Below are positions 11,179 through 59,192 of a DNA stretch of 64,000 nucleotides, piece by piece. The notes beneath the pieces were generated by a model. It searched no databases, was not told the DNA's origin, and saw only the letters and a program-made list of their open reading frames with translations. The translations under genes were made by a program, and so were the position numbers. Origin of the DNA: an uncultured Bdellovibrionales bacterium. Lineage in GTDB: Bacteria; Patescibacteriota; Minisyncoccia; Moranbacterales; UBA1568. Within the stretch, counting starts at the first letter, position 1; every line of letters starts with the position of its first letter. The DNA is taken from the NCBI GenBank assembly GCA_964483635.1, contig CAZABS010000001.1, positions 16,692 through 80,691 of the forward strand, written 5' to 3'.

Positions 11179-11316
11179 GTCGGTCTCCTTCTCAGTGATG
11201 AAAGTACCGACTTCATCTTGGAACGCAGTGCGCTTCTTGCCATGACGCGGAAAGGTGCTCGGGGTGCACCTCTCCCACGGCTATCTCACTCTCGTGAGAT
11301 TCCCTAGTCTGAGTGA

Positions 11317-27822: not shown

Positions 27823-27906
27823 GCTGTGGTGGCGGAATTGGTATACGCGCTAGCCTTAGGAGCTAGTACCCGCAAGGGTTTGAGAGTTCGAGTCTCTCCC
27901 ACAGCA
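27823..27906 (+). tRNA. tRNA-Leu (anticodon UAG), class II with a long variable arm
   Basis: Acceptor GCTGTGG/CCACAGC. D-arm GCGGAATTGGTATACGCGC is nearly identical to the E. coli tRNA-Leu D-arm. Anticodon stem CTAGC/GCTAG with loop CTTAGGA gives anticodon TAG. Variable arm ACCCGCAAGGGTT. T-arm GAGAGTTCGAGTCTCTC. Discriminator A; CCA is not encoded. Confidence 0.9.
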
Positions 27907-27956
27907 CACGAAAGCACCCTGATACTCCGAATAGCAAGGAGAGAGCAGGCAAGAAT

Positions 27957-30900
27957 CTAGTTTCGGAAACTCTTTCCCCGTGAGAAGATCCGAGTGGATG
28001 GTTGGGTATTTGGAAGCCAAGCCATGACGAGACCAGCCACAAAGAGAATAAAAGCAACACTAAGAAGCATCCTGAGACCAAAGAGTACGGATGCCGGGAG
28101 ATAATTCGAAAGTAAAGCAAGATATTTTTTTGTCCCTTGTTGTTGATCCAAAAGATCCTCTGAAGGATGCTCGAGCTGAATACTTGCACCAAAATACTGT
28201 TCACTCGCATCAAACACTGAAATTCCCCAAATATCAGCAAGCGCCTTCCGACTCGCATCGGTCGGTCGATATACGGCATTCAAAACCACATTATATACGG
28301 AGCCTGCAGGTTTCTGCGTATCAAAAATAATTTCTTTGGTTCCACTTCCACCAAGCTCCGTATCATCTACTTTCCAAGAGAGCTCAACCTTTGGCCAACG
28401 AGCATCTGTTGGCACGTCCAAATTCCCGAGAAAGTCAGGAATAAACTTCGCTCGAAGTTTCACTGAGGAGTCGGGAAGTGCCTGAAATGTATCTTTGCTC
28501 TCATCAAGAAAGGCATTTCCATCCGCATCGCGATACTGTCCAAGTACTTTCGGCCAAACAAGAGTTTCATCACCCGAAATAATTTCCACTGATGGATCCG
28601 TGATTCGGAACAGTCGAGAAAGTGAGATGCTTTCATTGGTCGAGGTACGCGCAGCAATCTTATTGGCCGTCACACTAATCGTTAGTGAATCACCCACCTC
28701 TCCCATAACTGGAAAGAAGGCGATATTCCCCTGACGATCATCAAAACACTGTGGAGAGACTTTCACATTACAGATGAGTGGTTTTCCATTAACGGTCCAG
28801 CTAAAGTTAGAATAGGTCTCCTTTCCGGTTGCCGCGTCAATTGGGTTATCGAGTTCAACAGCAATAATTTCATTCTTGAGCACTCGACACACTTTCGCTT
28901 CAAGTTTATCCAGTGCTTGTTTTGCGGCTGCTTCAGGATCTGCAGCTGGTGGAGCCGCCACATTACCACCGAGACAAATTTCTGTATCACTTCGACCCAA
29001 ACGTGCCACACTCCCGGTGCCCGAAGGAATCTTCTCTACATCCACCAAATACGCATGAATTTTTTCTGTCGAAGACGAAAAACGAATAATCACCGAGCTT
29101 CTCCCCTTGCGCGTAACTCCAGAGGCTTCAAAGTTTTCTGCTGCATCAAGTCGAAAACGGAGATATCCGTTCTTATTGCCATCCAGGTACGTTGCAAGAG
29201 CTCGGCCAGCAAAGAGATCTCCGTCCCGAAGGTTCAGCTTCAATCGCACTGTATTTACCCCATTTCCACGTACCAGCGAGAGCAGTTTTCGATCATCAGA
29301 GAGTGCGTTGAGAGAAGAGGTAATGTTCACCCAGCCCGTCGTTGGATTTGCTGTTCCATTAGAAGAAAGTTCAACCCGCCAATCGAAGAACGTTTCGGTT
29401 AAATTCTTGGCGAGATTATCAATCGTTGCCGTGACTTCTACTGTATCGCCATCATCTCGTCCCGTGCCATCATTTTGTGGAAGATCAGGCGTTGAAGCCA
29501 GATGAAGTTCAAGATTGGTCGCCTGACCACCAACGGTCGGATCGATCAAATTTCGCTCGAGACATTTATTTAAATCGATATTGATGGTGGGAAACGTGAC
29601 ATCATACCCCTTGATTTTTTGACGATACTCACCTGTCCCCGATGCTTCACTCATGGGACAATTTTTCTTTGAGAAAGCCCACATAATCATTCCGGAAGCA
29701 TCAGCATGTTTCGTTGGATTCATTGATATTCCCTCAACTACCACCCCGACCATGTCTCCCGCGGCATAATTCCACCGGAAACGCGATTGCCCGAGTCCAG
29801 CAACATTCGCTTCATCCTTATTCCCATTACTCGCCGTACTTGGATCATTAGGGTCTGTCTGCCAAAAATTCTCCTCCTGGAGATTGAAAGATCCATTACC
29901 CGTCACCGCCCCAGGAGCATTTGGAAACAAGTGTTTGCACATTGGCTCCGCATCAGAACGATTTGATGCCTCACAGGAAGTCAAAACTGGCCCGCCACCT
30001 GAAACATTGAGGGTATCCGTCACACAAGCAGGCGTTCCAACATAACAGCTGGGGGTACCACCCGAACACGTTGGAAAACCAGCCAGCGCGTTATCAGCCG
30101 ATCCAGTCACAAAAGTATCTCCACTTACTGAAGCATCCCCACCAGTGCCGCCGCTCCCACCCGTACCACTTCCTCCACCGCTACCCCCATCGCCGCCAGT
30201 AGCTTCAGCATCAATCGTCCCAGGACTCACGGTCACATTCGTAATGAGACAAACCGGCTTTGCCGTACAGTCCACAGGGTTCCCACCGCTTGTATATCGA
30301 AAAGTAATATCTCCTCCTTCTGCGATTTCATAGAACGTCCCGTTCACAGAATCCTGGTAGTAGCAGTAATCTGTTTTGGAACGCAAATTATCACCACTCC
30401 CATAGGGCGCTCGAAAACCATCGTTATCATTATCAACCAGTCCATTGGCCGCATAATCAACTGGACCATCAAAATCATTGGAGGAAATGCTTCGCATCGC
30501 CTCGATTTTCCAGTCCTCCACAGTAATCTTGCTATCATTATCCCGATCGCACTGCTCAATAACGGCAGCTGCTGGACTATTACTCAGATTACAACCCGAG
30601 CGCTTGATATACCACGTGTAATACAACATGTCCTCAGAAGTGGTAAAAAAGGTGGGGAGTGCAATCGCGGTAATCTTTTCCCCCACAACAGGATCTGTCG
30701 GTGTAAACTGGATTGTGACTTCTGGCGCATTCTTCTTGAGATTCATCACATTGAATTGCTGCCCTTGTTCACGAACCGCTTCTGTATTGACGTTGTAGCG
30801 CTGTTCAATATCTCCCGCCACACTCGAAGCTGATGGCATCTTGAGCCCTCCTCCAAACAAACTGAAAGCAGAGGCTGGCAGTACTCCCTGAAGAAAAAAG

Positions 30901-30962
30901 ATACAACTGACGACACCACTGAGGATTCGCCACGTCATTTTGTGATGTGCTTGATGCATCAT
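27957..30962 (-). CDS. Large (~1000 aa) secreted surface protein with Gly-rich linker and C-terminal membrane anchor
   Basis: Signal peptide MTWRILSGVVSCIFFLQGVLPASAFS. GGDGGSGGGSGTGGSGGTGG low-complexity linker. C-terminal TM LLSVAFILFVAGLVMAWL. Start set at the internal Met to avoid overlap with the upstream gene. Confidence 0.6.
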   Translation of the reverse strand: MMHQAHHKMTWRILSGVVSCIFFLQGVLPASAFSLFGGGLKMPSASSVAGDIEQRYNVNTEAVREQGQQFNVMNLKKNAPEVTIQFTPTDPVVGEKITAIALPTFFTTSEDMLYYTWYIKRSGCNLSNSPAAAVIEQCDRDNDSKITVEDWKIEAMRSISSNDFDGPVDYAANGLVDNDNDGFRAPYGSGDNLRSKTDYCYYQDSVNGTFYEIAEGGDITFRYTSGGNPVDCTAKPVCLITNVTVSPGTIDAEATGGDGGSGGGSGTGGSGGTGGDASVSGDTFVTGSADNALAGFPTCSGGTPSCYVGTPACVTDTLNVSGGGPVLTSCEASNRSDAEPMCKHLFPNAPGAVTGNGSFNLQEENFWQTDPNDPSTASNGNKDEANVAGLGQSRFRWNYAAGDMVGVVVEGISMNPTKHADASGMIMWAFSKKNCPMSEASGTGEYRQKIKGYDVTFPTINIDLNKCLERNLIDPTVGGQATNLELHLASTPDLPQNDGTGRDDGDTVEVTATIDNLAKNLTETFFDWRVELSSNGTANPTTGWVNITSSLNALSDDRKLLSLVRGNGVNTVRLKLNLRDGDLFAGRALATYLDGNKNGYLRFRLDAAENFEASGVTRKGRSSVIIRFSSSTEKIHAYLVDVEKIPSGTGSVARLGRSDTEICLGGNVAAPPAADPEAAAKQALDKLEAKVCRVLKNEIIAVELDNPIDAATGKETYSNFSWTVNGKPLICNVKVSPQCFDDRQGNIAFFPVMGEVGDSLTISVTANKIAARTSTNESISLSRLFRITDPSVEIISGDETLVWPKVLGQYRDADGNAFLDESKDTFQALPDSSVKLRAKFIPDFLGNLDVPTDARWPKVELSWKVDDTELGGSGTKEIIFDTQKPAGSVYNVVLNAVYRPTDASRKALADIWGISVFDASEQYFGASIQLEHPSEDLLDQQQGTKKYLALLSNYLPASVLFGLRMLLSVAFILFVAGLVMAWLPNTQPSTRIFSRGKSFRN

Positions 30963-30963
30963 A

Positions 30964-31626
30964 CTAGGTACCAACAATGAGAATAAGAGCGTCCGCCAAA
31001 AACACAAAAAACCAGGAAGCTCCCCAAGATGCGAGGAGCGAGCGCGATTGATAGGCAATCAGCCCCGCCAAGGGAGAAAACAGGAGGAGCGGGATCATCG
31101 CTGGAGTCATATCATCCGTGAGAAAGAGAAACCCAGCGAAGAGCGCCGCCTGAATGAACACTGAAAAAAATCCAAACCTGCGGAGCCAAACAAACATGAC
31201 CAACCCTCGAAAGAACACCTCAATAAGCAAGGTAACCCATCCATTGAGCACCACTTCGTAGAGAAGAAAGAGGAAAAAATTTTCCTCAATTGACCGTGGC
31301 AAGTGTACCTCGTGAAACAACGGGGTAAAGTGCATCAGCCCAAATAAGAAGATGAGTCCCGAAACCAGTGCTATGATCGATCCGCCAAGCCCAGCCCAGA
31401 TGGATCCCTTCTGCAACCCAAGAACTGACCATGGTTGCTTTAGTATTATTTTACAATAAAGTAAGGGGAGTACCAAGAAGAGGACAGCACTTGCGATGAG
31501 ACTTTGAAAGACGGGATTGATGGTCGAGTGCTGCTCCAAGGATGGCAAGAACACCAACGTCGTCAAGACAACTCCACCGGTCACAAGAAATTCTTTACGC
31601 TCCCCGAGCCACTGTACCATATTCAT
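30964..31626 (-). CDS. CPBP-family (CAAX/Abi) intramembrane metalloprotease
   Basis: Polytopic membrane protein with motif 1 LLYEVVLNGWVTLLIEVFFRGLV (EExxxR) and downstream FxxxH-type residues. Confidence 0.7.
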   Translation of the reverse strand: MNMVQWLGERKEFLVTGGVVLTTLVFLPSLEQHSTINPVFQSLIASAVLFLVLPLLYCKIILKQPWSVLGLQKGSIWAGLGGSIIALVSGLIFLFGLMHFTPLFHEVHLPRSIEENFFLFLLYEVVLNGWVTLLIEVFFRGLVMFVWLRRFGFFSVFIQAALFAGFLFLTDDMTPAMIPLLLFSPLAGLIAYQSRSLLASWGASWFFVFLADALILIVGT

Positions 31627-31687
31627 ACCTTTCTATTATAGCGCATCTCTCGGACTGCTGTCTGCGTCCAATATCCTTTTATAAACC

Positions 31688-34600
31688 CTACTCTTCAATA
31701 TTCTCTCGAAATATCTCCAACATTTTTTCTTTCATCTTTCTTCTTTTTTCTATCCTCTCACCAAGAACACGCTTACATTCCTCAACTGTTTGTTGGTTGT
31801 TAAAAAGCTTCTCCGCATGGTTGATTGCCCCCTCTTTTACCCCCTTCTCTCTCATTTGCGCTATAAACATTTCCTTGGAACTATCAATTAGTCCCTGTTT
31901 CTCAATGAAGTTCCACATTCCATTGTCCATGGATGTCTGTTTCTCATCAACGAGATCAAGAAGCTCGCTCGCTCGATTCGCTATTCGAGAGTTTTTCTCA
32001 GGATCTCCCCCTTGTTGTGATTCTGCCATTTCGATTGTACGTATTTTTTCCCTTATTTCCTTTTTTATCCCTTCATCACGAGCATATTGCATTAACATTT
32101 GTGCATCTTTAATTTTCTGTTGAGCAGCCATGACTGGTTTTTCGCGCATAATTGAAGCTACATCCACGGGAGATAGGTTTTCATCCAGGAGATCAATCGC
32201 TTGACCATTATGTGTAATAAGATAGGCAGGGACTCCGTATTTTTCTGATATTTCCAAAGTACCCTTCATGTTTTTGAGTGTTTTTTTCATTTCCCAATCA
32301 AGATATTCATTGTAGCCTCCTCCATTGGTCATTGTGACATTCCCTTCTTTCTTGAGAGACGATATATAAGCGTATGCCCCAGAAACTTCTGGTTGCTCTA
32401 CCACAATCTCATTGGTTCCTCCATAAACTGCCGGATTGTCCTTCTTTCGTTCAATGGCCATGGACATATTCTCTTCAATACCGCCCTGGATAGTTGACTG
32501 AAGTGCTTTGTCATACTTTGAATATTTTTGACGCATCCCTTGGGTAATTGTCCCAGCATCCCCCCCATAAGCTGAAAGTACTCGGCCGCCACCCAGAATT
32601 ACACCAACGGGATAAAAGCTTTCCTCCGCATGTAAAGGTTCTTTCTCTCCCATTTTTCTCGTAAAGACTGATATTGTAGGCTGCACAGCCATAACCCCGC
32701 CAGCTCTTTCCAAATGACCCATTTTTTCAGATTCAAAAAGCGGGTTATTCATAGAGGTATTTCGACCGGGAACAGTTGTCCCATCGTTGTACCGCGTCAA
32801 TATAGGGACACCGTGTAAGAAGAGTGCCTTATGTTTATCAGACAACTGTTCTATATCTCGCTTTCCCGCAGCGATATCTTTCTGAAACTCATTTGCTATA
32901 CCTCGTTGGGTTGCATAAAATCCGCTAGCTATGGCTTGTTGCGATTCACGCGAACCGCCAGCCTTCCGTTCGATTCTCATCTGTTCTGCAGTATCGCGTC
33001 GCCATTTTTGAGAGTAATCTTTAGAAAACTGGTAGCCCTCATTTTGAGCACCCCGAGACTTGCCGAGATCTCCTTTCCTTGCATTTATGAGAGACTCCTT
33101 CTGTAGATTTTCGAAGAATTGATACTCTGTATTTCCCATGGGTTCAATACCAACAATATATTGGATAGGAAGACCATCAGGAACCTCAATGAGTTCCTCA
33201 CCTTTCTCTCCTCTGCTCGTCGCTGATCTGTGCTTATATCTCTCAAACGCCTCTTTCGAGATACCAATCACCACACCGCCGTTCTTCGAAGATTTTGTTA
33301 TTTTTCTTGCTTTTTCAATTTCAGCTACTGTTACTTGGCGACCTACCCTATTAAGCTCGCTTATAATTTGTTCATTTTCCATATCTGGAACAATGCGTGC
33401 CATAGTCTCCGCATTTGCATGAGGGTCGAGTCCCAAGGATCGGGAAAATGTAACTATCTCTGCGGATGCCCCTGCATAGCTCGATGCTCCCTCAAGAGCA
33501 GTATCTCCACCAAAGCCAACACGCGCTTCATAATCTGTTGTAGCAGAAATCGGAAATACCGAAATTTCTGGGTTTCCTTCTTTTGTCGTAGCAAGTCTGT
33601 TTCGCGTTGCGCCAGGCATCTTTCCGTGTTCAAGAAGATATTGAATAGTATCTAATGTGCATCCGTGGTAAGCAATAATATTCGGATCATTCAAACCCTG
33701 AGAAAAACCGTTTGAAAGAAACTGCATACGCTTGTTTTTTTCAGATGTGTTGGTAGAACTTTCATCTGTTAATGGCGCGTTGGGAGTTGCAGAATATGAA
33801 GGGTTTGATACTCCATTGGTCTGATCTCGGGATGTACCTACGTCTTGTGAGAATTGCGAAGACGCCAAACTTCCTGACTGCATAGCCACTGGAGGACTTA
33901 CCATTGAAGACTTCGCTTGATCTTGATTTGATTCAAGAGTCTGAGATGACTGTGGAACAGGATGGGCAGGAGCAGCGCTAGAAGTGATTGTGCTACCAGA
34001 AAGGGCTGTGTTACTCGACCGAAAAGCAGATTGCGTAGAAGGACGAGCTATCACGATATCACTCCCACTTACCACACGCTCACGTGGCTGCTGTGGCGCA
34101 TCGAATCGAGCGTCGTTGGCAGCTTGACCACGCATTTGAATCGATGCGTTTTGGGGCGCAGCTGGTACACCGGCTACCCCATCCATCGCCTTCGATTGCG
34201 GTGACATTCCTTGCCCGGGAAACGCTCGGGTGGGAGACGAGAGAGAAGCAGCCATCATGGCGTTCCCTAGTGCCATTCCCCCACGATTCATCTCCGGCGC
34301 AGATCCTCCTTGGGTCACTTTAGCCTCAGCTCGCATCGCCGTCTCTTGCTCGGCTTCCATCCGAGCCCGTTGAAGCTCGATTTGTTCTTTCCGAGAGAGT
34401 CCTCGCATGGTAGCATCGAGCTTGGCAAGTTCATCTCGGGCTACATCAGCCGCCTCTTTGGCCAAGTGACGAGCATAGAGAACGCACACCGTCGTAAATG
34501 GAATCAGATCAATAATAGGAACGATATCTAATAGACTGACGAAAAAGAAAAGCACTCGCATCTTCCATTTTCCTCGACCCCACATGAAGATAAAAAGGTA

Positions 34601-34831
34601 GACGGCAATTGGAAAGCTTAAGAGAATATCAAGGACTTGTCCGACAATGGGAATATCCGAGATCGGATCCACCAATCCATCTTTTACAATCGCAACAATG
34701 AGAGGGAGCAAAAAAACTGAGAGGTCACCCTCTTTGACCCGTCTTCGAGCATCAAAAGCAAGCTTCGTAGCAAGCTTCAATCGCTCGGTTTGACTTCCTC
34801 TCACAAACTTCGTCACCTGCTCAAGCTCCAT
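31688..34831 (-). CDS. Large (1047 aa) membrane-anchored hypothetical protein of the T4SS-like cluster
   Basis: N-terminal TM helices (LLPLIVAIVKDG..., IAVYLFIFMW...), a long low-complexity Ser/Ala/Gln-rich linker, and a ~650-aa C-terminal domain with no recognised motif. Confidence 0.55.
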   Translation of the reverse strand: MELEQVTKFVRGSQTERLKLATKLAFDARRRVKEGDLSVFLLPLIVAIVKDGLVDPISDIPIVGQVLDILLSFPIAVYLFIFMWGRGKWKMRVLFFFVSLLDIVPIIDLIPFTTVCVLYARHLAKEAADVARDELAKLDATMRGLSRKEQIELQRARMEAEQETAMRAEAKVTQGGSAPEMNRGGMALGNAMMAASLSSPTRAFPGQGMSPQSKAMDGVAGVPAAPQNASIQMRGQAANDARFDAPQQPRERVVSGSDIVIARPSTQSAFRSSNTALSGSTITSSAAPAHPVPQSSQTLESNQDQAKSSMVSPPVAMQSGSLASSQFSQDVGTSRDQTNGVSNPSYSATPNAPLTDESSTNTSEKNKRMQFLSNGFSQGLNDPNIIAYHGCTLDTIQYLLEHGKMPGATRNRLATTKEGNPEISVFPISATTDYEARVGFGGDTALEGASSYAGASAEIVTFSRSLGLDPHANAETMARIVPDMENEQIISELNRVGRQVTVAEIEKARKITKSSKNGGVVIGISKEAFERYKHRSATSRGEKGEELIEVPDGLPIQYIVGIEPMGNTEYQFFENLQKESLINARKGDLGKSRGAQNEGYQFSKDYSQKWRRDTAEQMRIERKAGGSRESQQAIASGFYATQRGIANEFQKDIAAGKRDIEQLSDKHKALFLHGVPILTRYNDGTTVPGRNTSMNNPLFESEKMGHLERAGGVMAVQPTISVFTRKMGEKEPLHAEESFYPVGVILGGGRVLSAYGGDAGTITQGMRQKYSKYDKALQSTIQGGIEENMSMAIERKKDNPAVYGGTNEIVVEQPEVSGAYAYISSLKKEGNVTMTNGGGYNEYLDWEMKKTLKNMKGTLEISEKYGVPAYLITHNGQAIDLLDENLSPVDVASIMREKPVMAAQQKIKDAQMLMQYARDEGIKKEIREKIRTIEMAESQQGGDPEKNSRIANRASELLDLVDEKQTSMDNGMWNFIEKQGLIDSSKEMFIAQMREKGVKEGAINHAEKLFNNQQTVEECKRVLGERIEKRRKMKEKMLEIFRENIEE

Positions 34832-34839
34832 AGAGTTCC

Positions 34840-36771: not shown

Positions 36772-37460
36772 ACATTCGATTGAAGCTCTATGGATGAGAT
36801 GTTTTTCACTATCGAGGTTGTAAAGAGCGAAGGATTGTAACTATTATAGAGGAGCTCAATCACTTCTTCGGTACCGAGTAGCGTTGCTCTGATTCCAGTG
36901 GGAGTCAGCGCCGCCATAACATGTTCGACACGCTGGAGGAGCTGTGTTCGATAGGTGTCAAATTGTTCTTCCTGAAGACCTACCGTTTGTTTTTGATGAA
37001 AGATGTCTGTGATTTTCTGAAAAAATCCGCCTTGTTCATTTTCTACCGGAGAGAACGGTACGACAACATAAAAAAACTTTGACATAATATTTGAAACTTC
37101 GGTAAGATTTTTTATAAAATCGCGATACTCACCGATTTGGAATCGCAAGAGTTCGTTGGTTTGTTGCGCTTCACGATTCTTCAAGAGTGAGAGATATGGA
37201 TCAATATTGAAACGTCTGGATTGAACAACAATCTGAACTGGAAAATCCAAAGAGTTCAAAAAGTTTTGGTACTGAGCAATAATCGCATCTTGTTCCTCGC
37301 TTGATTTCAAATCAAAGTTAATCGACGAGACCAAAAGTACTGAGCGGAGCGCGCCACTTTTGAGAACAATTACGCCCTCGCGGATTTCTTCAACGTCCAC
37401 ATACCGCTGAGTACTTGCCGCGCCGGTCTTCTTTTTTGGAGTGAGGAGTTCTGTCAGCAT
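36768..37460 (-). CDS. VirB4 N-terminal domain-like protein, separate ORF overlapping the ATPase start by 4 bp
   Basis: RYVDVEEIREGVIVLKSGALRSVLLVSSINFDLKSSEEQDAIIAQYQNFLNSLDFPVQIVVQSRRFNIDPYL matches the N-terminal region of Gram-positive VirB4 homologues (TrsE/PrgJ type). Confidence 0.5.
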   Translation of the reverse strand: MLTELLTPKKKTGAASTQRYVDVEEIREGVIVLKSGALRSVLLVSSINFDLKSSEEQDAIIAQYQNFLNSLDFPVQIVVQSRRFNIDPYLSLLKNREAQQTNELLRFQIGEYRDFIKNLTEVSNIMSKFFYVVVPFSPVENEQGGFFQKITDIFHQKQTVGLQEEQFDTYRTQLLQRVEHVMAALTPTGIRATLLGTEEVIELLYNSYNPSLFTTSIVKNISSIELQSNV

Positions 37461-37462
37461 AT

Positions 37463-37867
37463 TTATATTCGTCCGTGTTGATCAACGATATTCGCCAAAC
37501 GCCGGAGCTCTTCTAGAGTAACACGTTTCTCTTTTGGTTGGATATCGGCTTTGACTATCGGCTCAACGACTTTTTTCGGTAACTTGCTCACCGGACGTTC
37601 CCACAGTGCCAGTTTTGGTCGAAAAAGGAACAGAAATGCATAAGCTACGTAGACGATAAGCGGCTGATTGTGTGGTCGATAAAACGCAAGGGCAACAAAG
37701 AGAAGAATTACTGGAACAGCGATCACCATAAAAAGGCTCTTCTCTACCACATTGAAGAGTACAAGCAGTACTGCCCCTAATCCGATCATCCACAGCAGTT
37801 GGCGCCAAGTCAGCGGGCCTGCGATCTTGTCCTCGACATCGATAAATTGTGGGACATTGAACATCAT
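37463..37867 (-). CDS. VirB3/PrgI-like small membrane protein
   Basis: Two TM helices (LLWMIGLGAVLLVLFNVV; MVIAVPVILLFVALAF) in a ~135-aa protein immediately upstream of VirB4, the usual VirB3 position. Confidence 0.45.
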   Translation of the reverse strand: MMFNVPQFIDVEDKIAGPLTWRQLLWMIGLGAVLLVLFNVVEKSLFMVIAVPVILLFVALAFYRPHNQPLIVYVAYAFLFLFRPKLALWERPVSKLPKKVVEPIVKADIQPKEKRVTLEELRRLANIVDQHGRI

Positions 37868-37935
37868 AGCAAGAGAAATACTTTGAAATGAAACTCGCAC
37901 GCGTTCTCCATCAAACCACACTGAGCCGACTTGCC

Positions 37936-39201
37936 CTACGGCTTATCGCTCCGTGATCGAAATGGACGGATTGAATATGGAGAGCGACTTTGATTGGCAG
38001 GATTCGTAATTCGTTGTCCAGTCCCAAAACGAGTTGCTCCGGTGCTGGCAGCGACTGGGACACTTGCGACTGGTGGTACTACTTGAGTCTCCTGACTCGC
38101 CTTTTCCGCCGGTAACACATGACCAGTTGAAAATTGGACGGTATGATTGGCAATATTTTCAATCGGCTTCATATTTCCTACCAAAGACGGTACAGCTGAT
38201 GCCGAAGACGTAGACACAGGACGAGATGCTCCTCCAAAGCTCGCCTTTGACTGAGCTGCGATGGGTGGCCGCGAGGCTAAAGAGGTAGGTGGCTGGATAA
38301 CCCAAGGATTGACTCCGCGAGACGAGACTCCTGAAGGCTGATTCATCCCCCCTTGAAATATCGGAGCAGAAAACGCCTGAGCCTCCGGTTTTGATGCGCT
38401 AGACGAAGCCTGGGGTGTCGGAAAAGATACCGCTCCCCTCAAAGGAGCTCCTCCGCCCTGATTGGATTGAGGAATGGTGACATCTGGAAAAACGATTTCT
38501 TGACGCGCCGTATCAATATCTAATGGAAACTCTTCTTCAATCGACTTCAGAATAAGATTGAGTCGCTCGCGTTCCTCCCCTGATAGACGCTTTCCATTTT
38601 CGGACTGAAAGAGAAATTTTCCACGCAAAACCTGATCATGAAACCCAATCCCAAGTTCATCGCGATAATAGTGAATCCAATTGGTAAGCGATCCCCTAAC
38701 TGGTTCCGACGATTGCTTCGTCTTGATCCGATTCGCGGTAATATTTTGCTCTCCCAATCGCGGATACTCACTCAACGCCTTGAGAAGTGGCTTCTTAATC
38801 ACTCCAATCACCTTGGGTTGCTCAACAGATTCCACCTCTTCATTCACCGGCTTTGGAATAAGATGCAGTATCTCTCGATCAATAAACGAAACGATATCTT
38901 TGGCCCGGTTTGGATCACCACCCGGTGTCTGCGTAAGTAGAGATACGATCTTCGCCTCAGCCCCAGGTAAATCTATCTCCTGAAAAATTATCTCTCTGAC
39001 GAGTAGACTCACTTTTGCAGTGATGTCTCTGCTAAGATTAAATTTATCTTGTAAGATCTTCAATTTCAGGGGGAGTTCATTTGCTGTCAGAATATCTTGA
39101 GCCTTATGATCAAGAGTATCAAACTTCTGCCACGCCAAAAACAGCTCGTCTTGAGAGCCACCATCACTTCGTACCAACATTGGCAAGTATATGGGATCCA
39201 T
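37936..39201 (-). CDS. Hypothetical protein (421 aa) with Ser/Pro/Ala-rich C-terminal half
   Basis: Long ORF in the T4SS-like operon; no motif. Confidence 0.45.
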   Translation of the reverse strand: MDPIYLPMLVRSDGGSQDELFLAWQKFDTLDHKAQDILTANELPLKLKILQDKFNLSRDITAKVSLLVREIIFQEIDLPGAEAKIVSLLTQTPGGDPNRAKDIVSFIDREILHLIPKPVNEEVESVEQPKVIGVIKKPLLKALSEYPRLGEQNITANRIKTKQSSEPVRGSLTNWIHYYRDELGIGFHDQVLRGKFLFQSENGKRLSGEERERLNLILKSIEEEFPLDIDTARQEIVFPDVTIPQSNQGGGAPLRGAVSFPTPQASSSASKPEAQAFSAPIFQGGMNQPSGVSSRGVNPWVIQPPTSLASRPPIAAQSKASFGGASRPVSTSSASAVPSLVGNMKPIENIANHTVQFSTGHVLPAEKASQETQVVPPVASVPVAASTGATRFGTGQRITNPANQSRSPYSIRPFRSRSDKP

Positions 39202-39216
39202 TATTGAATAAGTGCC

Positions 39217-41316
39217 TTAGGAGCGTTTTGAATAATTCCCCTGGGGAATAATTATTCCTGCAGGCGTGACCTGTTCACCAGACTTTTCTGTTACCCGACT
39301 TTTTCCACCAATCCAGACTTCACGATCCTTGAGTGACATTTTTTTAAGCATTTCCTGCATATATTGAGAGTCCTCATTGAAGCGACCTTCAAGATACGCC
39401 CGGAGCGCCTTACTGTCTTCCCCTCCTCCGAGTGTCGATTGGTGCATATTGGACTGAGCAGCCAAATCATCAGCTTTAAGGCCCTTCAGTAAACTGTCGT
39501 ACGCTTTATTCCTTGCGGCGTCTTTTCCGAGTGTTGGGGTAAATTGATCTATCTCATAGGCTATTCGAGCATCCAACTTACCCTCTTTTTTCATCTTATC
39601 ATTCAATGCCTTATAAACATCACTCTCAGCATCAACCGCTGGTTTCCCATTCACCATGACAATCTTGTTATCTTGATCGCGTTTTGTCAAAGCTGGACTT
39701 GCGAGAATTGCAGCATAGATATCTTTGTTCATCCCATCAAATGCCTCCGATCTTGCCCCATCCAAAACCTTATCAGCAAGATCCAGATTATCTCCGGCTG
39801 CCGCCATTGCCTGCTGGAGCACTTCCGCGCTTTTAATTTCTTTTGCTTCTGCGAGAGAGAGGGCATTTGCAGCTCGAGTAATTTCATCATTCTTCGTTGG
39901 GTCAAGCCCGGCAATAAGAGCTGATCGATTTACTCGATTCTCCTTATTTTCCTTAGCTTTCTCATTAATTTCTTTCCACTTCAATTTCTGAAGTTCTGTT
40001 TTCGCTCCCGCTAATCCCTTACCGGTACGGACTGTTGCTTTAGAAAAATACCCCTTGAGAGCCGCCTCGCTCTTACTCGGGGATGTTATAAACTTCCCCA
40101 TCCAGGTATTAGACAATCGCTTCTTGACACCACCGCCGACACCACGTGCAATTGGATTCTTATATCCTACCCATTTACCACCACGCAGAGCTTGATTTCC
40201 ACCCCACTTGGCAAATTTCTCGCCCATGCCGGTCACTGCTCCTGCGCCAGCAATACTAAATTTATTTGCAGAACCAATAGCCATCCAAATCAAAATAATC
40301 GGCAAGAGAAACATCACCATAGCCGTCATAATACCAGCACCACTTGAATCTGTAGCAATGTTCACAGCGGTCTTTTGAAGTTCGGCGCTCATTGTTCCAG
40401 ATATTTTCACCGCTGACATAAATTTTACAGCAACCAAGAGCATAAGTGCCGCTGAAGGTCCAAACAAAGCATAACTCCAAAACTTTTCCCACCATTGGCT
40501 ACTGTATTTACTCAAGCCTGGCATAAAACTTGCAGCAAAACCGACTGGAGAAAAAATTAGTAAAAGTACCAATCCAATCACTCGGATAAAAAGCATTACA
40601 GATAGTACAACTACTGAGATGGCAAAAATAAACATGAATACAATCCCGAGGAGTAATGCTTTAAATGAAGTGTCTCTCGCTTTTTGATCATCAGGAATAA
40701 TAATTTTGGTCAATTGTGAAGCACTCAGAACCTCTCCAAGTGCTGTTTTCGATGCTCCATCAACGCTTCCATTAGGACTGAGGGTGTTGACAAAGTAATA
40801 CATCGGAACATTGGTCATATCCACGAGAAATCTCGTGATGGGGAAACTGAAATTGACGAGGAGAGCCCCGAGCAAAATACTGAGAAATAACTTTTTTAAG
40901 CTATACTGCTCTACCTGAAAAATTGTAGCAAAGGCAGAGAAAAGAAGTATAAGAATAAAGAAAAGGTTGAAAAAATCCCGAATAAACTGCCAAAGTTCAA
41001 GAGTTGCTTGAATGTTTAATAGCCCTCCAGGACCAGATATGTTACTCGGTTGTATAACAAATTGAAACAGTACAAGTGCTGCGCTCGCAATAACCTGCAT
41101 GACAATAAGAACAGCATAGAGAATCCACTTCGCTCCAATACAAAAAATATTGACAACACTACATTTGTCATCATCGCCAGCTGACGATTCTGCGACTTCC
41201 TGAGCAAACACATCAAACGAATAAAATGGGGAAAAAGAAATCCCCTGTGAAAGCACTATCACCAAAAACAGACTTACAAGAAGTTTTTTTATATTTTGTT
41301 TTTTCAGCCAACGCAT
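39217..41316 (-). CDS. VirB6/TrbL-like polytopic membrane protein with a ~330-aa hydrophilic Lys/Ala-rich C-terminal extension
   Basis: Signal/TM N-terminus followed by at least 6 TM helices in the first ~370 aa, then a charged extension. Its position relative to the hydrolase, VirB3 and VirB4 matches monoderm T4SS loci. Confidence 0.5.
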   Translation of the reverse strand: MRWLKKQNIKKLLVSLFLVIVLSQGISFSPFYSFDVFAQEVAESSAGDDDKCSVVNIFCIGAKWILYAVLIVMQVIASAALVLFQFVIQPSNISGPGGLLNIQATLELWQFIRDFFNLFFILILLFSAFATIFQVEQYSLKKLFLSILLGALLVNFSFPITRFLVDMTNVPMYYFVNTLSPNGSVDGASKTALGEVLSASQLTKIIIPDDQKARDTSFKALLLGIVFMFIFAISVVVLSVMLFIRVIGLVLLLIFSPVGFAASFMPGLSKYSSQWWEKFWSYALFGPSAALMLLVAVKFMSAVKISGTMSAELQKTAVNIATDSSGAGIMTAMVMFLLPIILIWMAIGSANKFSIAGAGAVTGMGEKFAKWGGNQALRGGKWVGYKNPIARGVGGGVKKRLSNTWMGKFITSPSKSEAALKGYFSKATVRTGKGLAGAKTELQKLKWKEINEKAKENKENRVNRSALIAGLDPTKNDEITRAANALSLAEAKEIKSAEVLQQAMAAAGDNLDLADKVLDGARSEAFDGMNKDIYAAILASPALTKRDQDNKIVMVNGKPAVDAESDVYKALNDKMKKEGKLDARIAYEIDQFTPTLGKDAARNKAYDSLLKGLKADDLAAQSNMHQSTLGGGEDSKALRAYLEGRFNEDSQYMQEMLKKMSLKDREVWIGGKSRVTEKSGEQVTPAGIIIPQGNYSKRS

Positions 41317-41543
41317 AGAAATTCACTTTCCGATATGGAAATGGAAGATGCATTTAGTATATCATAAGTATCAACCAATCAAGTACTGTTTCACGAAAAG
41401 AAAAGCGAGTCATGAAACCTCTTTTCTCTCCATTAAAAAACGGGGGCTTCCCCCCATCAGAGTCAACTAGCATTTCTACTGATCGTGGTTTTTTTAGTTG
41501 TTTTGATTCCAAATGGAAGGGAACGTCGAAATGTAGAGTGGCA

Positions 41544-42785
41544 TCAGTAAATGTACCCCTTAATCACTCGACTCGTGCGAGCGAGTTGACGAGTGCTCTT
41601 CTTCCCCCAACCAACATAATTCATTTCAGAAACCGTAATCGTTGAGGCAGAAACCTTTTCGACGTACGCAACGTGGCCATAGTAACGATTTTCGGTCGTC
41701 ACCACAATTGATCCAACCGTGGGCGTCTTCCCGGTCTTATACCCAAGGGCGCGCGCATTAAAAAGCCACGTTCCAGCATTCCCACCCCAAGGAACAAAAC
41801 GTTTTTGGGCGACATACCAGGTACAGTACCCGTATGGAAAACGGTGCCCGGCTCCAACTTTCCCTTCCTTGGGACGTGAAAAGTCTGGGGTTATATCCGT
41901 CGCTGCCCCCCCGCCAGCCGTTGCATATTGACGGCGTGCCAAACCTGATGCATCCGGAGTACTCGATGGTGGAAGCGCTTTCTGCCCATCAGGAATCACG
42001 ATCGTCTCCCCAACCGAAAGTTCCCCATTCGCTGGAAGACCATTAAAAGCGATGATTTTCCCTTTATTCGAATGATATTTTGCTGAAATTGAATCAATAG
42101 TATCTCCTGCTGCCACGGTATAGGTAAATCCTGCCACTGGTAGGATGAAAATCTGATCACCTGGCTTTATCGAATCAACATTATCGAGATCATTCGCCCA
42201 GAGGATAGTATTAACACTAATCCCATTCTTGGCAGCAATCCCTGAAACCGTATCTCCGGCCAAAACAGTATATATCCGCACCCCCCCATCTTCCTCAGGA
42301 TCTCGAGCAATATTACTCGAAACAGCTGCTGCTAAGAACATCTGATTTTCTGGGCTGAGAGCCGTTTCTTCAAAGACACTCGCATCTGACTTTTGATTTG
42401 GATCAATACTATTCGGGGCGCTCGCAAGAGAAACCAAGCTCAAATTCTCCTGTTTGCTTTCTTGAGCAGCCAAACGTGGGGCTCGATGCTGCCCGGCTGC
42501 CACTACTACCCCAGAAAGAAAGCCTGGTGTGCCTCGTCCATGGGTAAAATTTGTGAGTGAAACGAGAAGCGCTGTCACCACGACCAAAGAAAAGGCTGCA
42601 TAATTTCGAAAAAGACGTACCGGAAGATATCCAGAACCCTCTTTTACCCAAATAAGAAAACGCGACTGCACGTGATGAAACGCCGTATTCCAAAGAACCC
42701 CCTTCTCTTGAAAACGGAGGAAGAAGGTGGCCACCAATTGAGTCAAACGCGTAAAAATAACTCGGGTCCTTTCTGGGAACAGCAC
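41544..42785 (-). CDS. Cell-wall hydrolase with 2 LysM domains and a C-terminal CHAP domain (VirB1 functional analogue)
   Basis: LysM 1 YTVLAGDTVSGIAAKNGISVNTILWANDL and LysM 2 YTVAAGDTIDSISAKY. CHAP domain FPYGYCTWYVAQKRF (Cys) and YGHVAYVEKV (His). Confidence 0.8.
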   Translation of the reverse strand: MLFPERTRVIFTRLTQLVATFFLRFQEKGVLWNTAFHHVQSRFLIWVKEGSGYLPVRLFRNYAAFSLVVVTALLVSLTNFTHGRGTPGFLSGVVVAAGQHRAPRLAAQESKQENLSLVSLASAPNSIDPNQKSDASVFEETALSPENQMFLAAAVSSNIARDPEEDGGVRIYTVLAGDTVSGIAAKNGISVNTILWANDLDNVDSIKPGDQIFILPVAGFTYTVAAGDTIDSISAKYHSNKGKIIAFNGLPANGELSVGETIVIPDGQKALPPSSTPDASGLARRQYATAGGGAATDITPDFSRPKEGKVGAGHRFPYGYCTWYVAQKRFVPWGGNAGTWLFNARALGYKTGKTPTVGSIVVTTENRYYGHVAYVEKVSASTITVSEMNYVGWGKKSTRQLARTSRVIKGYIY

Positions 42786-43020
42786 GTAAGCCTTGAAACA
42801 AAAGGTGATCCTTTTGACCCTTCGGCATCAGTGCTACCCCTTAGAGTTACAGTACTGAGGATACCCGAAAACCCTCATTCAGTCAATCAAAAATTAGTGA
42901 TAAATCTCCATATTAAGCTTTAGATAAGGCATTTTTGGATATTTCATCTTGCAGCATCTCTCCTCAATGAGAGCATTCAAGTCGCCACGCGCTCCATGGT
43001 ACAATAATGTCGCAGAACCT

Positions 43021-57590: not shown

Positions 57591-57672
57591 AGAAAACCGT
57601 GTACCTATAAACTCACCCAGACAAAATAAATGTTAAGTAGCTTCAGAGTAACCTCTTTTTTGCTCTTTTGTC

Positions 57673-59146: not shown

Positions 59147-59192
59147 AGCCGAAGCATTTGGGAAGACTCATCGAGTCCTCCCGTTTTTTTTA

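Follow-up and report, generated by a model that had tools for sequence, protein, structure and literature searches.

Locus organisation and synteny

The T4SS-like genes at positions 27,957–42,785 of the 64-kb stretch of DNA analysed here (the window) raise the question of whether they belong to a mobile element or to a chromosomal secretion machine, and of what the two very large proteins encoded among them contribute to it. The organism is a member of Candidatus Moranbacteria (Patescibacteria), and the named sources of the closest VirB4 homologs are Moranbacteria or Patescibacteria, with identities of 76–100%. The ORFs of the window confirmed nine minus-strand genes in the order originally predicted (coordinates below refer to the minus strand unless stated otherwise). 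The intergenic gaps range from −4 to 61 nt, with the exception of a single gap of 228 nt. It separates the hydrolase gene from the rest of the cluster and contains a terminator-like GC hairpin and T-run (41,439–41,458), in which an 8-bp stem with 5 GC pairs precedes TTTTAATGGA; the match is to the consensus alone.

The synteny survey included 80 species-representative loci of relatives, and the counts of gene presence are given per 82 loci. The order XerD–LysM/CHAP–699 aa–421 aa–PrgI–TrsD–VirB4–small membrane protein–CPBP-like–~1000 aa–tRNA-Leu is kept, at the GC content of the host, in about 65 species-level genomes; the shared order also includes PcrA upstream of XerD, and tRNA-Leu with a small ORF beyond the ~1000-aa gene. 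The cluster has a GC content of 0.44–0.48, the same as the adjacent genes for PcrA, KsgA, ComM, LspA and PNPase; of these, PcrA, ComM and PNPase all lie within 20 kb. Given this recurrence at the GC content of the host, the cluster itself is a conserved chromosomal one of the Patescibacteria type and not an ICE; a T4SS of this kind has already been described. The expectation of a reduced, relaxase-less monoderm T4SS of CPR/Patescibacteria is in line with both the VirB4 homologs and the synteny with core genes. There is good reason to believe that the region represents a chromosomal, vertically inherited, relaxase-less monoderm (MPF-FATA-derived) T4SS locus of Moranbacteria with the part roles proposed below; its putative placement in the Patescibacteria T4SS clade comes from VirB4 best hits only.

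Components of the proposed translocon

The first gene encodes a membrane-anchored peptidoglycan hydrolase with two LysM repeats and a CHAP domain (41,544–42,785; Pfam LysM 5.2e-22, CHAP 1.4e-18) and one N-terminal TM segment at residues 58–76. It is syntenic in 52 of 82 loci, with a median identity of 59%. The profile matches support the original assignment, and the same is true of the VirB3-like small membrane protein (37,463–37,921; Pfam PrgI 7.2e-12), which is present in 75 of 82 loci. As its homologs are 130–138 aa long, the true start of this gene is probably an internal Met.

The gene at 34,840–36,771 encodes a complete VirB4 ATPase, the T4SS signature protein (Pfam P-loop_TraG 1.6e-30, AAA_10 2e-13, DUF87), with the Walker A “GAGKS” and Walker B “VVDEAW” motifs legible in the sequence. 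Its homologs are 73–100% identical in the 82 loci and also comprise thousands of CPR entries. VirB4 had been predicted to occupy two ORFs, but the second (36,768–37,460) is a separate TrsD-like gene (NCBIfam TrsD, NF041427, 2.3e-8; VirB4_plasma 1.8e-9 at model positions 98–265). Its product is homologous to the VirB4 N-terminal region and has a precomputed PF26593 TraC-like assignment. The TrsD-like protein is present in 80 of 82 loci (median identity 67%), and in 80 of 82 it is encoded by a gene distinct from virB4.

The polytopic membrane protein of 699 aa in the VirB6 position (39,217–41,316) has a signal-like helix, six TM helices and a hydrophilic C-terminal half of about 350 aa, which differs among relatives: the closest ones align over residues 1–386 only (61–63% identity). 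No Pfam, NCBIfam or PDB-sequence match was found for this protein; TrbL was matched by only one of 33 family members (E 0.032), and the hhalign comparison of the family with pCF10 PrgH gave an E value of 0.088. The predicted VirB6 label fits by topology and position only, with no confirmation from the sequence. The adjacent 421-aa protein (37,936–39,201) is a conserved soluble protein without TM segments, present in 65 of 82 loci. It comprises an N-terminal domain of about 250 aa, a low-complexity stretch and short conserved C-terminal motifs, and its N-terminal 137 residues are replaced in the relative L086. It has no match in Pfam, NCBIfam or PDB, nor to pCF10 PrgL or PrgD. A search for VirB8-like and VirB2-like components found none.

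Flanking regions and the origin of the locus

The downstream end of the locus is marked by a tRNA-Leu gene (anticodon TAG; 27,823–27,907, plus strand; ARAGORN), which is found after the ~1000-aa gene in 20 relatives or more. A small conserved ORF (27,453–27,818, plus strand), with a same-place homolog in 42 loci, is the last native gene ahead of a GC-rich left block of 27 kb, and the GC step is at 27.3–27.6 kb. The left block contains genes for a large serine recombinase, RadC, a DNA methylase, GmrSD, PIN and TIR proteins, and two T4CP-like ATPase paralogs of the TrwB/VirD4 P-loop family (393 and 1002 aa; 11,317–12,498 and 13,064–16,072, plus strand), with a 170-aa ORF between them. The paralogs are 38% identical to one another and match the Pfam families TrwB_AAD_bind (7.5e-10 and 1.2e-9), TraG-D_C and T4SS-DNA_transf. 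The original prediction that the cluster lacks a relaxase, a coupling protein and a pilin holds within the cluster, but the two T4CP-like ORFs are found 12–16 kb beyond it, in a compositionally distinct block.

This gene content, together with the location of tRNA-Leu at the GC step and a tyrosine recombinase gene bordering the opposite end of the cluster, could suggest that the T4SS and T4CP-like genes form, together with the serine recombinase, an integrative conjugative or mobilisable element inserted next to tRNA-Leu. However, the GC content of the T4SS cluster matches the housekeeping side and not the left block, and the cluster is syntenic in about 50–65 species together with both flanks (XerD/PcrA on one side, tRNA-Leu and the small ORF on the other). 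The tyrosine recombinase is XerD/XerC-like (42,949–43,980, plus strand; TIGR02225 XerD 2.6e-74); its gene is found in 51 loci (68% identity), where it invariably has PcrA on one side and the hydrolase gene on the other, and is a syntenic core flank rather than the integrase of an element. The T4CP-like proteins have no homologs at any of the 80 relatives' loci, and neither do the serine recombinase, RadC, PIN and TIR proteins; homologs of other left-block ORFs are limited to three, all at the L003 locus. Neither T4CP-like protein has a canonical membrane anchor (by hydropathy, the 393-aa protein lacks TM segments and the 1002-aa protein has a single weak one), and their alignment with pCF10 PcfC is confined to the Walker regions. 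No match to relaxase families was found among the scanned ORFs of the whole window, which likewise lacks a direct repeat of the tRNA end. The adjacent relaxase and T4CP genes that would be expected of an ordinary ICE were not observed, the T4CP-like paralogs being distant. The conjugative element is hardly credible and already largely refuted, and conjugation by the T4SS locus is unlikely, since there is neither a relaxase nor a canonical coupling protein.

A chimeric contig, in which misassembly produced either the 1047-aa gene or the boundary to the GC-rich block, might also explain the abrupt GC change at 27.4 kb. Two Logan contigs terminate inside tRNA-Leu, and the left block encodes a PEP-CTERM protein, unusual for a CPR genome. 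Nevertheless, in two assemblies obtained independently from different samples (L001, SRR12762287; L002, ERR8482633), a 1047-aa gene with a few amino-acid differences lies between neighbours of identical length in both. The nearest species (L003) has homologs of the PKD, 288-aa and PEP-CTERM proteins a few kb past its ~1000-aa gene, with a similar rise in GC, and the left block is reproduced in a third assembly (L083), the contig of which does not span the junction. An artefact is highly improbable, and the chromosomal locus remains the preferred interpretation.

The post-virB4 protein and its swappable cassette

Both large proteins had been considered candidate adhesins or host-interaction factors. 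The 1047-aa one is not an adhesin; its gene consists of a small membrane protein gene fused to a swappable tail of about 850 residues. A membrane protein with a median length of 179 aa occupies the slot after virB4 in every locus that has both neighbours, and in the divergent sub-lineage it is also present, judged by position. Residues 1–135 of the 1047-aa protein (34,427–34,831) make up this slot membrane domain: the hhalign comparison of its group with the main slot family gave a probability of 98.4% and an E value of 5.6e-15, and the N-terminal domain is 45% identical to the slot protein of L018. The 1047-aa protein has matches in nine of 82 loci, over the first ~130 residues only. Hydropathy indicates three TM segments in the slot protein and a possible fourth or a re-entrant hairpin, so the side of the membrane bearing the cassette is uncertain.

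The cassette (31,648–34,248) covers codons ~195–1047 and about 40 nt past the stop. In a blastn comparison of the window with the closest relative, L086, it demonstrated no DNA similarity, whereas the flanks were 90–92% identical; the proteins share 87% identity over residues 1–227 and are unrelated beyond. The GC content of the cassette is 0.444 versus 0.465–0.476 in the flanks. Domain A (residues 365–585; 33,077–33,739) has an ADP-ribosyltransferase (ART) fold with conserved His389-Gly390 and Glu563/Glu569 and is closest to nucleic-acid modifiers of the Tpt1/DarT type. Among the slot-protein cassettes compared, it is restricted to the present genome. Its stand-alone homologs are mostly 205–265 aa long. 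Domain B (residues ~600–960; 31,952–33,034) is CPR-specific, with the motifs LFLHGxP, LEPTISxS, LSAY..DAGT and NE(I/L)VVExP. It belongs to no Pfam family, is not related to domain A, and its sole PDB match, to OPRT, is marginal (E 2.6e-4). Four of the six long slot-protein variants carry this domain (the window, L086, L041 and L087; hmmsearch E 1e-20 to 1e-87), and its stand-alone homologs have 235–913 aa.

An ~850-residue tail with an ADP-ribosyltransferase-fold domain on a slot protein is a candidate cargo of the secretion machine. Alternatively, the extension is not secreted and represents a cytoplasmic enzyme or regulator fused for co-localisation (“Rosetta stone”), or is not linked to secretion at all. 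The stand-alone homologs of domains A and B whose sequences were read have no N-terminal signal peptides, and two domain B genes have tRNA-synthetase, FtsZ and ribosomal genes as neighbours but neither T4SS genes nor recognisable immunity genes in their vicinity, which argues against a classical toxin. Furthermore, the gene downstream of the 1047-aa gene encodes the universally conserved CPBP-like protein and not a cassette-specific immunity protein, and domain B occurs with both N-terminal subtypes of the slot protein, as expected of a functional partner. On the other hand, the replacement breakpoints between genomes are sharp while neighbouring genes are 90–99% identical, as is typically seen for functions that face outward and diversify. 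Among the modules are an ART fold and a region with an HExxH motif, and domain A is also found behind a zincin module and within a 5935-aa protein. A non-secreted extension is a serious contender with a somewhat less than even chance. The 1047-aa protein is probably a T4SS-associated membrane subunit with a swappable enzymatic cassette folded in the cytoplasm. The most likely options for the cassette are that it docks at the machine as cargo or that it is an enzyme retained on the cytoplasmic side of the machine.

The CPBP-like protein and the probable surface protein

The next gene encodes a 220-aa protein of the CPBP/Rce1 fold with seven TM segments (30,964–31,626), present in 68 of 82 loci. 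Its Pfam Rce1-like match is marginal (22.8 bits versus a cutoff of 22.4), and 20 of 34 family members show this match (best E 2.8e-7). In the family alignment, E124, E136 and R140 are invariant, no His is invariant or at least 90% conserved, and the two canonical catalytic/metal-binding His motifs are absent family-wide. The assignment to the fold can be retained, but the suggested protease and effector-processing function is weakened: as no histidine is conserved, the protein is unlikely to work by the canonical protease mechanism. The lack of conserved His appears not to have been described so far.

Of the two large proteins, only the ~1000-aa one (27,957–30,959) resembles a surface or adhesin-type protein. 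Translation of its 1033-aa ORF most likely begins at Met34, which gives 1000 aa. The product is a secreted Cys-rich Ig-like/beta-sandwich array with a Sec signal, 14 invariant Cys, a Gly-rich linker and a C-terminal TM anchor. It is conserved in 66 of 82 loci and specific to Moranbacteria, and its module with the CPBP-like protein is missing from the divergent sub-lineage. Such an anchored array also appears to be undescribed.

Proposed function and comparison with known systems

Homologous systems suggest that the anchored LysM–CHAP enzyme opens peptidoglycan locally, and that the 699-aa protein, PrgI, TrsD and the VirB4 ATPase would form an energised cytoplasmic-membrane translocon. The small polytopic post-virB4 protein may be a further, as yet unnamed subunit. 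Here and in a few relatives it carries a linker of low complexity and, at the C-terminus, a swappable cassette, in the present case with an ART-fold domain nearest to the Tpt1/DarT type and the CPR-specific domain B. The anatomy of the His-less CPBP-fold protein and the ~1000-aa Ig-like chain points to an envelope module specific to Moranbacteria, which would most likely serve as a surface stalk or adhesin at host-cell contact. The roles of the slot, CPBP-like, 421-aa and ~1000-aa proteins are suggested by position and conservation alone.

Another view is that the T4SS mainly imports host RNA, DNA or other material instead of exporting effectors, and that the Tpt1/DarT-like ART domain, tethered on its cytoplasmic side, would modify or process the incoming nucleic acid. 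S. epibionticum requires its CPR T4SS, while ComEC-dependent competence is dispensable, and the T4SS has been proposed to serve nucleotide acquisition (PMC11665869; PMC12857230). A cultivated CPR bacterium takes up host RNA and shows tubular structures that possibly represent T4SS pili (preprint 10.64898/2026.06.21.733656). Tpt1 (RNA 2'-phosphate) and DarT (ssDNA) are among the nearest structural relatives of domain A; comM directly follows the slot gene in the L074–L082 lineage, and the window has PcrA, ComM and PNPase close to the cluster. However, nothing in the sequence indicates directionality, these nucleic-acid genes are ordinary housekeeping genes of a compact genome, no pilin was found in the window, and an ART domain confined to one genome's cassette cannot be part of a general mechanism. 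An importer is considered rather unlikely.

The chromosomal T4SS locus can be compared with known systems at several points. The LysM–CHAP hydrolase is a functional analogue of VirB1-type enzymes. T4SS loci of the Patescibacteria class are chromosomal and relaxase-free, and the system is indispensable to S. epibionticum (PMC12102498; PMC10633639; PMC12857230); the present locus fits this class (Quiñonero-Coronel 2025; Wang 2023; PMC12102498; PMC10633639). In this class, KsgA is typically encoded close to virB4 (PMC12102498), and the window agrees with it in this respect as well.

Gene Content and Affiliation of the Secretion Locus

The GC content of the window is 0.53–0.60 from position 1 to about 27.4 kb and 0.44–0.49 from there up to about 59 kb, and the region 27957–42785 lies entirely in the low-GC part. 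It comprises nine ORFs, all on the minus strand, with gaps ranging from a 4-nt overlap to 61 nt, except for one gap of 228 nt that contains a terminator-like hairpin (41458–41439). HMM searches agreed with the labels originally given to VirB4 (34840–36771, minus strand; Pfam P-loop_TraG, 1.6e-30), PrgI/VirB3 (37463–37921, minus strand; Pfam PrgI, 7.2e-12) and the hydrolase with two LysM domains and a CHAP domain (41544–42785, minus strand; 5e-22 and 1.4e-18). The hydrolase is of the amidase/peptidase type, not a lytic transglycosylase, and is syntenic in 52 loci. VirB4 had been thought to occupy two ORFs, but the 230-aa ORF upstream of virB4 on the minus strand is a separate TrsD-like gene (NCBIfam TrsD, 2.3e-8) and not a VirB4 fragment. 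Its product aligns to the N-terminal part of VirB4 models. The last 4 nt of the gene, at its stop codon, overlap the start of virB4, and in 80 of 82 related loci the two genes are separate.

The VirB6-like label of the 699-aa protein held as far as topology is concerned. A signal-like helix, six TM helices and a hydrophilic tail of about 350 aa agree with the “extended VirB6” architecture described in PMC12857230, but the sequence methods gave negative or borderline results. Pfam (E ≤ 10) and NCBIfam searches with this protein returned nothing, TrbL was touched by one of 33 family members in a family-wide Pfam scan (E-value 0.032), the hhalign comparison of the family with PrgH of the monoderm MPF-FATA plasmid pCF10 was borderline (E-value 0.088), and the family profile had no match among PDB sequences. 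The 421-aa protein was considered as VirB8/PrgL or PrgD, and no match was obtained. As had been predicted, no pilin is evident; when small ORFs with two or more TM segments were searched for heuristically, PrgI and LspA were the only ones obtained.

The gene of a XerD/XerC-like recombinase (42949–43980; XerD, 2.6e-74), with 68% identity across 51 loci, is followed on its right by housekeeping genes of the same GC content encoding PcrA, UbiA, KsgA, a G5/DPBB protein, ComM, LspA and PNPase. Farther right, two neighbouring ORFs of the plus strand (57668–59146 and 59194–60027) each have at the 5′ end a copy of a 61-nt direct repeat (57666–57726 and 59186–59246; 80% identity), which probably marks paralogous N-termini or leaders.

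VirB4 is 76–100% identical to its best 120 database matches, and all source names among these are Candidatus Moranbacteria/Moraniibacteriota or “Patescibacteria group”. Judged by these best matches, the closest relatives of VirB4 appear to be patescibacterial. Many related MAG records (TPA assemblies) are titled “uncultured Bdellovibrionales bacterium”. These titles look like taxonomic mislabels, because the T4SS loci of the records are collinear with those of Moranbacteria and 75–85% identical to them. To our knowledge, Moranbacteria have no cultured member.

Eighty loci from species-representative genomes were fetched, and the window proteins were mapped onto them. In about 65 of the 80, the shared order is PcrA, XerD-like recombinase, LysM/CHAP hydrolase, 699-aa protein, 421-aa protein, PrgI, TrsD, VirB4, a small membrane protein (hereafter the slot protein), a CPBP-like protein and a protein of about 1000 aa, and in many relatives a tRNA-Leu gene and a small ORF come next (27823–27907 and 27453–27818 in the window). 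The comparison with CPR genomes thus finds the gene order recurring in about 65 species, and the earlier reading of the cluster as a reduced, relaxase-less system of CPR/Patescibacteria matches the class described in PMC12102498 (Quiñonero-Coronel et al. 2025). That class is chromosomal and MPF-FATA-derived, comprises VirB4, TrsD, PrgI and sometimes VirB6 and VirB1 analogues, and lacks a relaxase; its T4CP homologs are mostly encoded at other sites of the genome, and ksgA is frequently close by. In Patescibacteria-type T4SS, a VirB2-like pilin gene or array near virB4 is known from many classes, though not from every one. The identification of the locus as a chromosomal patescibacterial T4SS is well supported, and we regard it as highly probable. 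How it works may be judged by analogy with homologous monoderm systems. T4SSs are near-universal in Patescibacteria, and in Southlakia epibionticum, the one genetically tractable species, a homologous T4SS (SEML1_0006-0019) is essential (Wang et al. 2023, PMC10633639). The function of this T4SS has been called “completely unknown”, with effector delivery and uptake of nucleic acids or nutrients as alternatives (PMC11665869).

The GC-Rich Left Block and the Question of a Mobile Element

The T4SS genes might be thought to belong to an ICE, since the GC-rich left block carries two T4CP-like ORFs, located at 11317–12498 (393 aa; TrwB_AAD_bind, 7.5e-10, and TraG-D_C) and 13064–16072 (1002 aa; TrwB_AAD_bind, 1.2e-9, and T4SS-DNA_transf). 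However, no scanned ORF of the window, in the left block or in the flanks, matched a relaxase family of Pfam or NCBIfam, and the pair of adjacent relaxase and T4CP genes that would make the cluster an ordinary ICE was looked for and not found. The two T4CP-like ATPases are paralogs (38% identity) that share only the Walker regions with PcfC of pCF10 and have no canonical membrane anchor, as the 393-aa protein shows no TM segment by hydropathy analysis and the 1002-aa protein a single weak one. Their genes belong to a different GC block, at a distance of 19–25 kb from virB4, and are absent from the loci of all 80 relatives. Besides, the tRNA end has no repeat elsewhere in the window, there are no flanking direct repeats, and the locus occurs in about 65 species and has the GC content of the housekeeping flank. 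The ICE reading was rejected as very improbable.

The tyrosine recombinase, considered as the integrase of an element, is XerD-like and syntenic and represents a core gene. It was also considered that the drop in GC content at 28 kb and the tRNA-Leu gene might delimit the T4SS cluster as an island. This idea was dropped, because relatives have the cluster in a syntenic position and PcrA, KsgA, ComM, LspA and PNPase are encoded on the low-GC side. The odd part of the window is the GC-rich left block, not the T4SS cluster.

The left block (1–27400), whose left end is beyond the window, has the appearance of a mobile or defence island. It encodes GmrSD (181–1368), an N6/N4 DNA methylase (2268–3164), a large serine recombinase (3468–4964), RadC (10612–11178), PIN_12 (23624–24688) and TIR_2 (24988–26280) proteins. 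A 1369-aa PKD-repeat protein (16171–20280) is encoded beside a 288-aa ORF (20302–21168), which adjoins the minus-strand gene of a PEP-CTERM-family protein (21177–21863; NF038129, 3e-31). Normally, PEP-CTERM sorting is associated with exosortase systems of diderm bacteria, and such a protein is unexpected in a monoderm CPR genome. Part of the PKD-repeat gene (16984–17709) contains two interleaved tandem repeat families of about 138 nt, five copies each, 62–82% identical, which probably reflect repeated protein domains.

Eight left-block genes, the first to be tested, had no match in the T4SS loci of the 80 relatives, save a weak PKD match in L003, the nearest species. There, homologs of the PKD, 288-aa and PEP-CTERM genes were found at the equivalent place (18.7–20.9 kb, 56–61% identity). 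Since these three homologs are located just past the gene of the approximately 1000-aa protein in L003, the junction of the T4SS side with the GC-rich block is probably real. A chimeric assembly at the junction is improbable, though two Logan contigs stop inside tRNA-Leu. These independent assemblies (L001 10744–10813 and L002 9405–9474, corresponding to about 27838–27907 in the window) end 70 nt into the tRNA gene. The shared ends suggest a branch of the assembly graph at the tRNA, caused either by strain variation beyond it or by the shared tRNA sequence.

A Putative T4SS Subunit Fused to Two Independent Domains

The distance between virB4 and the CPBP-like gene is 153–983 nt in relatives versus 3217 nt in the window. 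In relatives, this space holds the slot gene, whose product is a small, polytopic membrane protein of 179 aa in median length that shares the motifs LLKDLLD, GSLPGIGT and NFLPIET. The slot family matched neither pilin families nor PrgD, E, F, G, H, I, L, M and PcfA of pCF10. In the window, the first 135 or so residues of the 1047-aa protein belong to this family (hhalign probability 98.4%, E-value 5.6e-15; 45% identity to the slot protein of locus L018), and they are followed by a Ser/Gln/Pro-rich linker and about 680 further residues. The original prediction of two surface proteins of more than 1000 aa seems to hold for the approximately 1000-aa protein, which has a Sec signal and an anchor, but not for the 1047-aa protein, which is a fusion of a slot subunit with a C-terminal cassette.

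When the C-terminal part was used as query in a word-indexed homology search, the protein matched nothing but itself. An exhaustive HMMER search returned 231 remote homologs, which resolve this part into two independent domains, A (residues ~365–585) and B (residues ~600–960). They occur together in none of the other HMMER matches, and no Pfam family covers either of them. Domain A mostly constitutes stand-alone proteins of 205–265 aa, e.g. in Doudnabacteria. It was also found once at the C-terminus of a 712-aa protein (P0242) with an HExxH zincin-like motif upstream, and once inside a giant protein of 5935 aa (P0272), two modular settings that recall polymorphic toxins. Domain B is present in signal-less proteins of 235–913 aa, e.g. 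in Parcubacteria.

Domain A has the split beta-sheet core of the ART fold and is a putative ADP-ribosyltransferase. Its residues H389-G390, located at the end of the first strand and conserved at 96–98%, align to the HGT motif of yeast Tpt1, the feature sought being a conserved His/Arg contacting NAD+. Two glutamates at or after the last strand (E563, 76%, and E569, 93%) and a tyrosine in a helix (Y452, 87%) are conserved as well and are candidates for the second and third ART motifs (Tyr or STS; catalytic Glu). Domain B had been suspected from motifs to be a second ART domain, and the hhalign comparison with domain A found nothing; its sole match among PDB entries was a marginal OPRT segment.

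Exchange of the C-Terminal Cassettes

Long slot proteins of 1047, 828, 641, 990, 953 and 597 aa differ in C-terminal content. Besides the window protein, they include the 828-aa protein of the closest relative, L086 (VirB4 identity 99%), the 641-aa protein of L085 (93%), the 990-aa protein of L087 (84%) and those of 953 and 597 aa from two more distant loci. In L087, the slot gene and the CPBP-like gene are separated by two inserted tiny ORFs and an inserted gene of HepT-like (HEPN toxin) type (11165–11509).

The neighbouring proteins of the window and L086 are closely similar (VirB4 99%, TrsD 98%, CPBP-like protein 98%, PrgI 93% and the approximately 1000-aa protein 91% identity). The slot proteins are 87% identical over residues 1–227 and then unrelated, save for a domain B with 26% identity. 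DNA identity amounts to about 92% between 38791 and 34249, is not detectable between 34248 and 31648 and returns to about 90% between 31647 and 27882. The breakpoints are thus at 34249 and 31647, and the similarity resumes about 40 nt past the stop codon. Of the six long variants, four contain domain B, which is attached to both N-terminal subtypes; in its place, as read by eye, the cassettes of L085 and L005 (another related locus) carry an HExxH-motif region and a GHG...SCSTG region, respectively. Pfam searches with the variant cassettes of L086, L085, L087, L005 and L041 gave nothing.

A conserved N-terminus with C-terminal modules exchanged at a sharp breakpoint is what polymorphic toxin and effector loci display. 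No cassette-specific immunity gene was found directly downstream, where the neighbour is the CPBP-like gene in 68 of 82 loci, whatever the cassette. Two other parts of the locus are replaced or strongly diverged relative to L086, one being the C-terminal, hydrophilic half of the 699-aa protein and the other residues 1–137 of the 421-aa protein. For this reason, the variable parts may be those that meet substrates or the host. The two segments have no DNA similarity (window 38792–40201 versus L086 1326–3233), and the TM half of the 699-aa gene retains 67% DNA identity.

The CPBP-Fold Protein and the Probable Ig-Like Surface Protein

The label of CPBP protease given to the product of 30964–31626 (minus strand) was retained for the fold. 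The window protein matches Rce1-like/CPBP marginally (22.8 bits versus a cutoff of 22.4), and 20 of 34 family members match PF02517 (best E-value 2.8e-7) and no other family; the family profile had no match among PDB sequences. Catalytic CPBP proteases are defined by two His motifs, FxxxH and HxxxN/D. In the alignment of the 34 members, no His is invariant or conserved at 90% or more, and the window protein has no His beyond residue 108. Motif 1, EExxxR, reads YEVFFRG in the family consensus and IEVFFRG in the window protein, with the first Glu missing and both the second Glu and the Arg invariant. As the His motifs are absent and only the Glu-x3-Arg of motif 1 is kept, the protein probably has a CPBP fold without the canonical protease mechanism.

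The CPBP-fold gene sits upstream of the gene of the approximately 1000-aa protein. The ORF of the latter is 1033 aa long, and it most likely starts at Met34, giving 1000 aa, in view of independent gene calls and homolog lengths of about 890–1200 aa, mostly 900–1000 aa. The protein carries a Sec-type signal (“...LPASA/FS”) and a C-terminal TM helix, contains a Gly-rich linker and is predicted to be an Ig-like anchored surface protein. Its family comprises 269 homolog clusters, all “hypothetical” and with Moranbacteria as the named sources; fourteen cysteines are invariant, and some members contain an inserted Laminin_G_3 domain.

A divergent sub-lineage (L074–L082) keeps the order polytopic protein, PrgI, TrsD, VirB4 and small membrane protein and lacks the CPBP-like/Ig-like pair at the locus, so that the pair is a lineage-specific add-on. 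In these loci, comM directly follows the post-VirB4 small membrane gene (e.g. L075 11833–14208), and the polytopic protein upstream of PrgI is far shorter (270–334 aa). This conserved pair would add a lineage-specific envelope module to the Moranbacteria parts list.

Possible Roles of the Cassette

The cassette can be read as cargo or an effector docked at the machine, which is supported by the pattern of cassette swaps and by the ART and HExxH modules. In a competing reading, it is a non-secreted enzyme held at the machine. This agrees with the lack of signal peptides in the homolog sequences read and of a cassette-specific immunity gene, and with the position of the two stand-alone domain B genes looked up, which sit among housekeeping genes, a context that does not seem to favour toxicity. 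The existence of signal-less stand-alone homologs suggests that the cassette would fold in the cytoplasm, a prediction in which the membrane side is uncertain. An import role of the T4SS would also be compatible with the Tpt1/DarT-like fold of domain A and with the host-RNA uptake reported for a cultivated CPR (preprint 10.64898/2026.06.21.733656).

It is tentatively proposed, as a rather unlikely possibility, that the post-virB4 slot is a diversifying cargo-on-machine locus. In this proposal, a conserved inner-membrane subunit of the T4SS would carry exchangeable C-terminal enzymes, which are delivered into the host bacterium by this T4SS or act on nucleic acid in transit through it, the candidates being the ART-fold domain, domain B, the HExxH-motif module and others. 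If true, a secretion system on which epibiotic growth depends would gain its first concrete candidate substrates or partners, and a T4SS link would follow by Rosetta-stone logic for the stand-alone domain B proteins that are widespread in CPR. A protein in which exchangeable enzymatic modules are joined to a conserved membrane subunit of the T4SS provides testable candidates for what the machine handles, with the domain B family, widespread in CPR, as a possible T4SS partner. Should these readings all fail, the locus would be a further example of a known system.

Comparison with Known Systems

The system class is already known. In the literature searched, no paper pairing Moranbacteria with type IV secretion was found, and neither was a description of the post-VirB4 small membrane subunit as a conserved part, of the Moranbacteria-specific His-less CPBP-fold/Ig-like pair, of the constant pairing of a CPBP-like protein with an anchored surface protein of about 1000 aa beside a T4SS, or of a polymorphic cassette with an ART-fold domain. 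PMC12102498 does not describe a polymorphic cassette on the post-VirB4 gene, nor does it contain the words CPBP, CAAX or Moranbacter.

Only 85–116 or so residues of domain A superpose on Tpt1/KptA and DarT, with 9–22% identity. Like Tpt1/KptA, domain A has a His-Gly-Thr/Ser motif at the end of strand 1; unlike Tpt1 and DarT, it contains a long helical insertion, and the N-terminal lobe of Tpt1 presumably has no counterpart in it. Other ART proteins listed with domain A are the Rhs ART toxins TreX and TreTu, heat-labile enterotoxin, pertussis toxin, PARPs, exotoxin A, diphtheria toxin and Arr. The CPBP-like protein resembles CPBP/Abi (Rce1-like, PF02517) proteins in its seven TM helices, Pfam match and invariant Glu-x3-Arg of motif 1, but the window family differs from the proteases of this group in the absence of FxxxH and HxxxN/D.

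Fusions of structural subunits with effectors and polymorphic toxins are known elsewhere, including the “evolved” VgrG/PAAR of T6SS, CdiA-CT, Rhs and LXG, and we know of no equivalent arrangement for a T4SS. Unlike in those toxins, no cassette-specific immunity gene follows here, the N-terminal part is a polytopic inner-membrane protein, the module homologs are ordinary signal-less CPR proteins and secretion is putative.

The order of membrane protein, PrgI and VirB4-type ATPase and the CHAP cell-wall hydrolase are shared with pCF10 (PrgH-I-J-K-L), the TrsD-type protein with pGO1, another monoderm MPF-FATA plasmid, and the absence of outer-membrane core components with monoderm MPF-FATA systems. 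In contrast to pCF10 and pGO1, the locus has no relaxase, no PcfC-type anchored coupling protein and no LPXTG adhesins, and, unlike the plasmid and ICE prototypes, it is core chromosomal. It agrees with the Patescibacteria-clade T4SS in its chromosomal location, in the presence of VirB4, TrsD, PrgI/VirB3 and a peptidoglycan hydrolase, in the lack of a relaxase, the non-adjacent T4CP homologs and the nearby ksgA, and in the strong conservation of VirB4 within a class. It differs in that no VirB2-like pilin array was found here and the VirB6 homolog is unrecognisable by sequence. To that class, the locus adds a small membrane protein encoded after VirB4, a His-less CPBP-fold protein and an Ig-like anchored protein of about 1000 aa.
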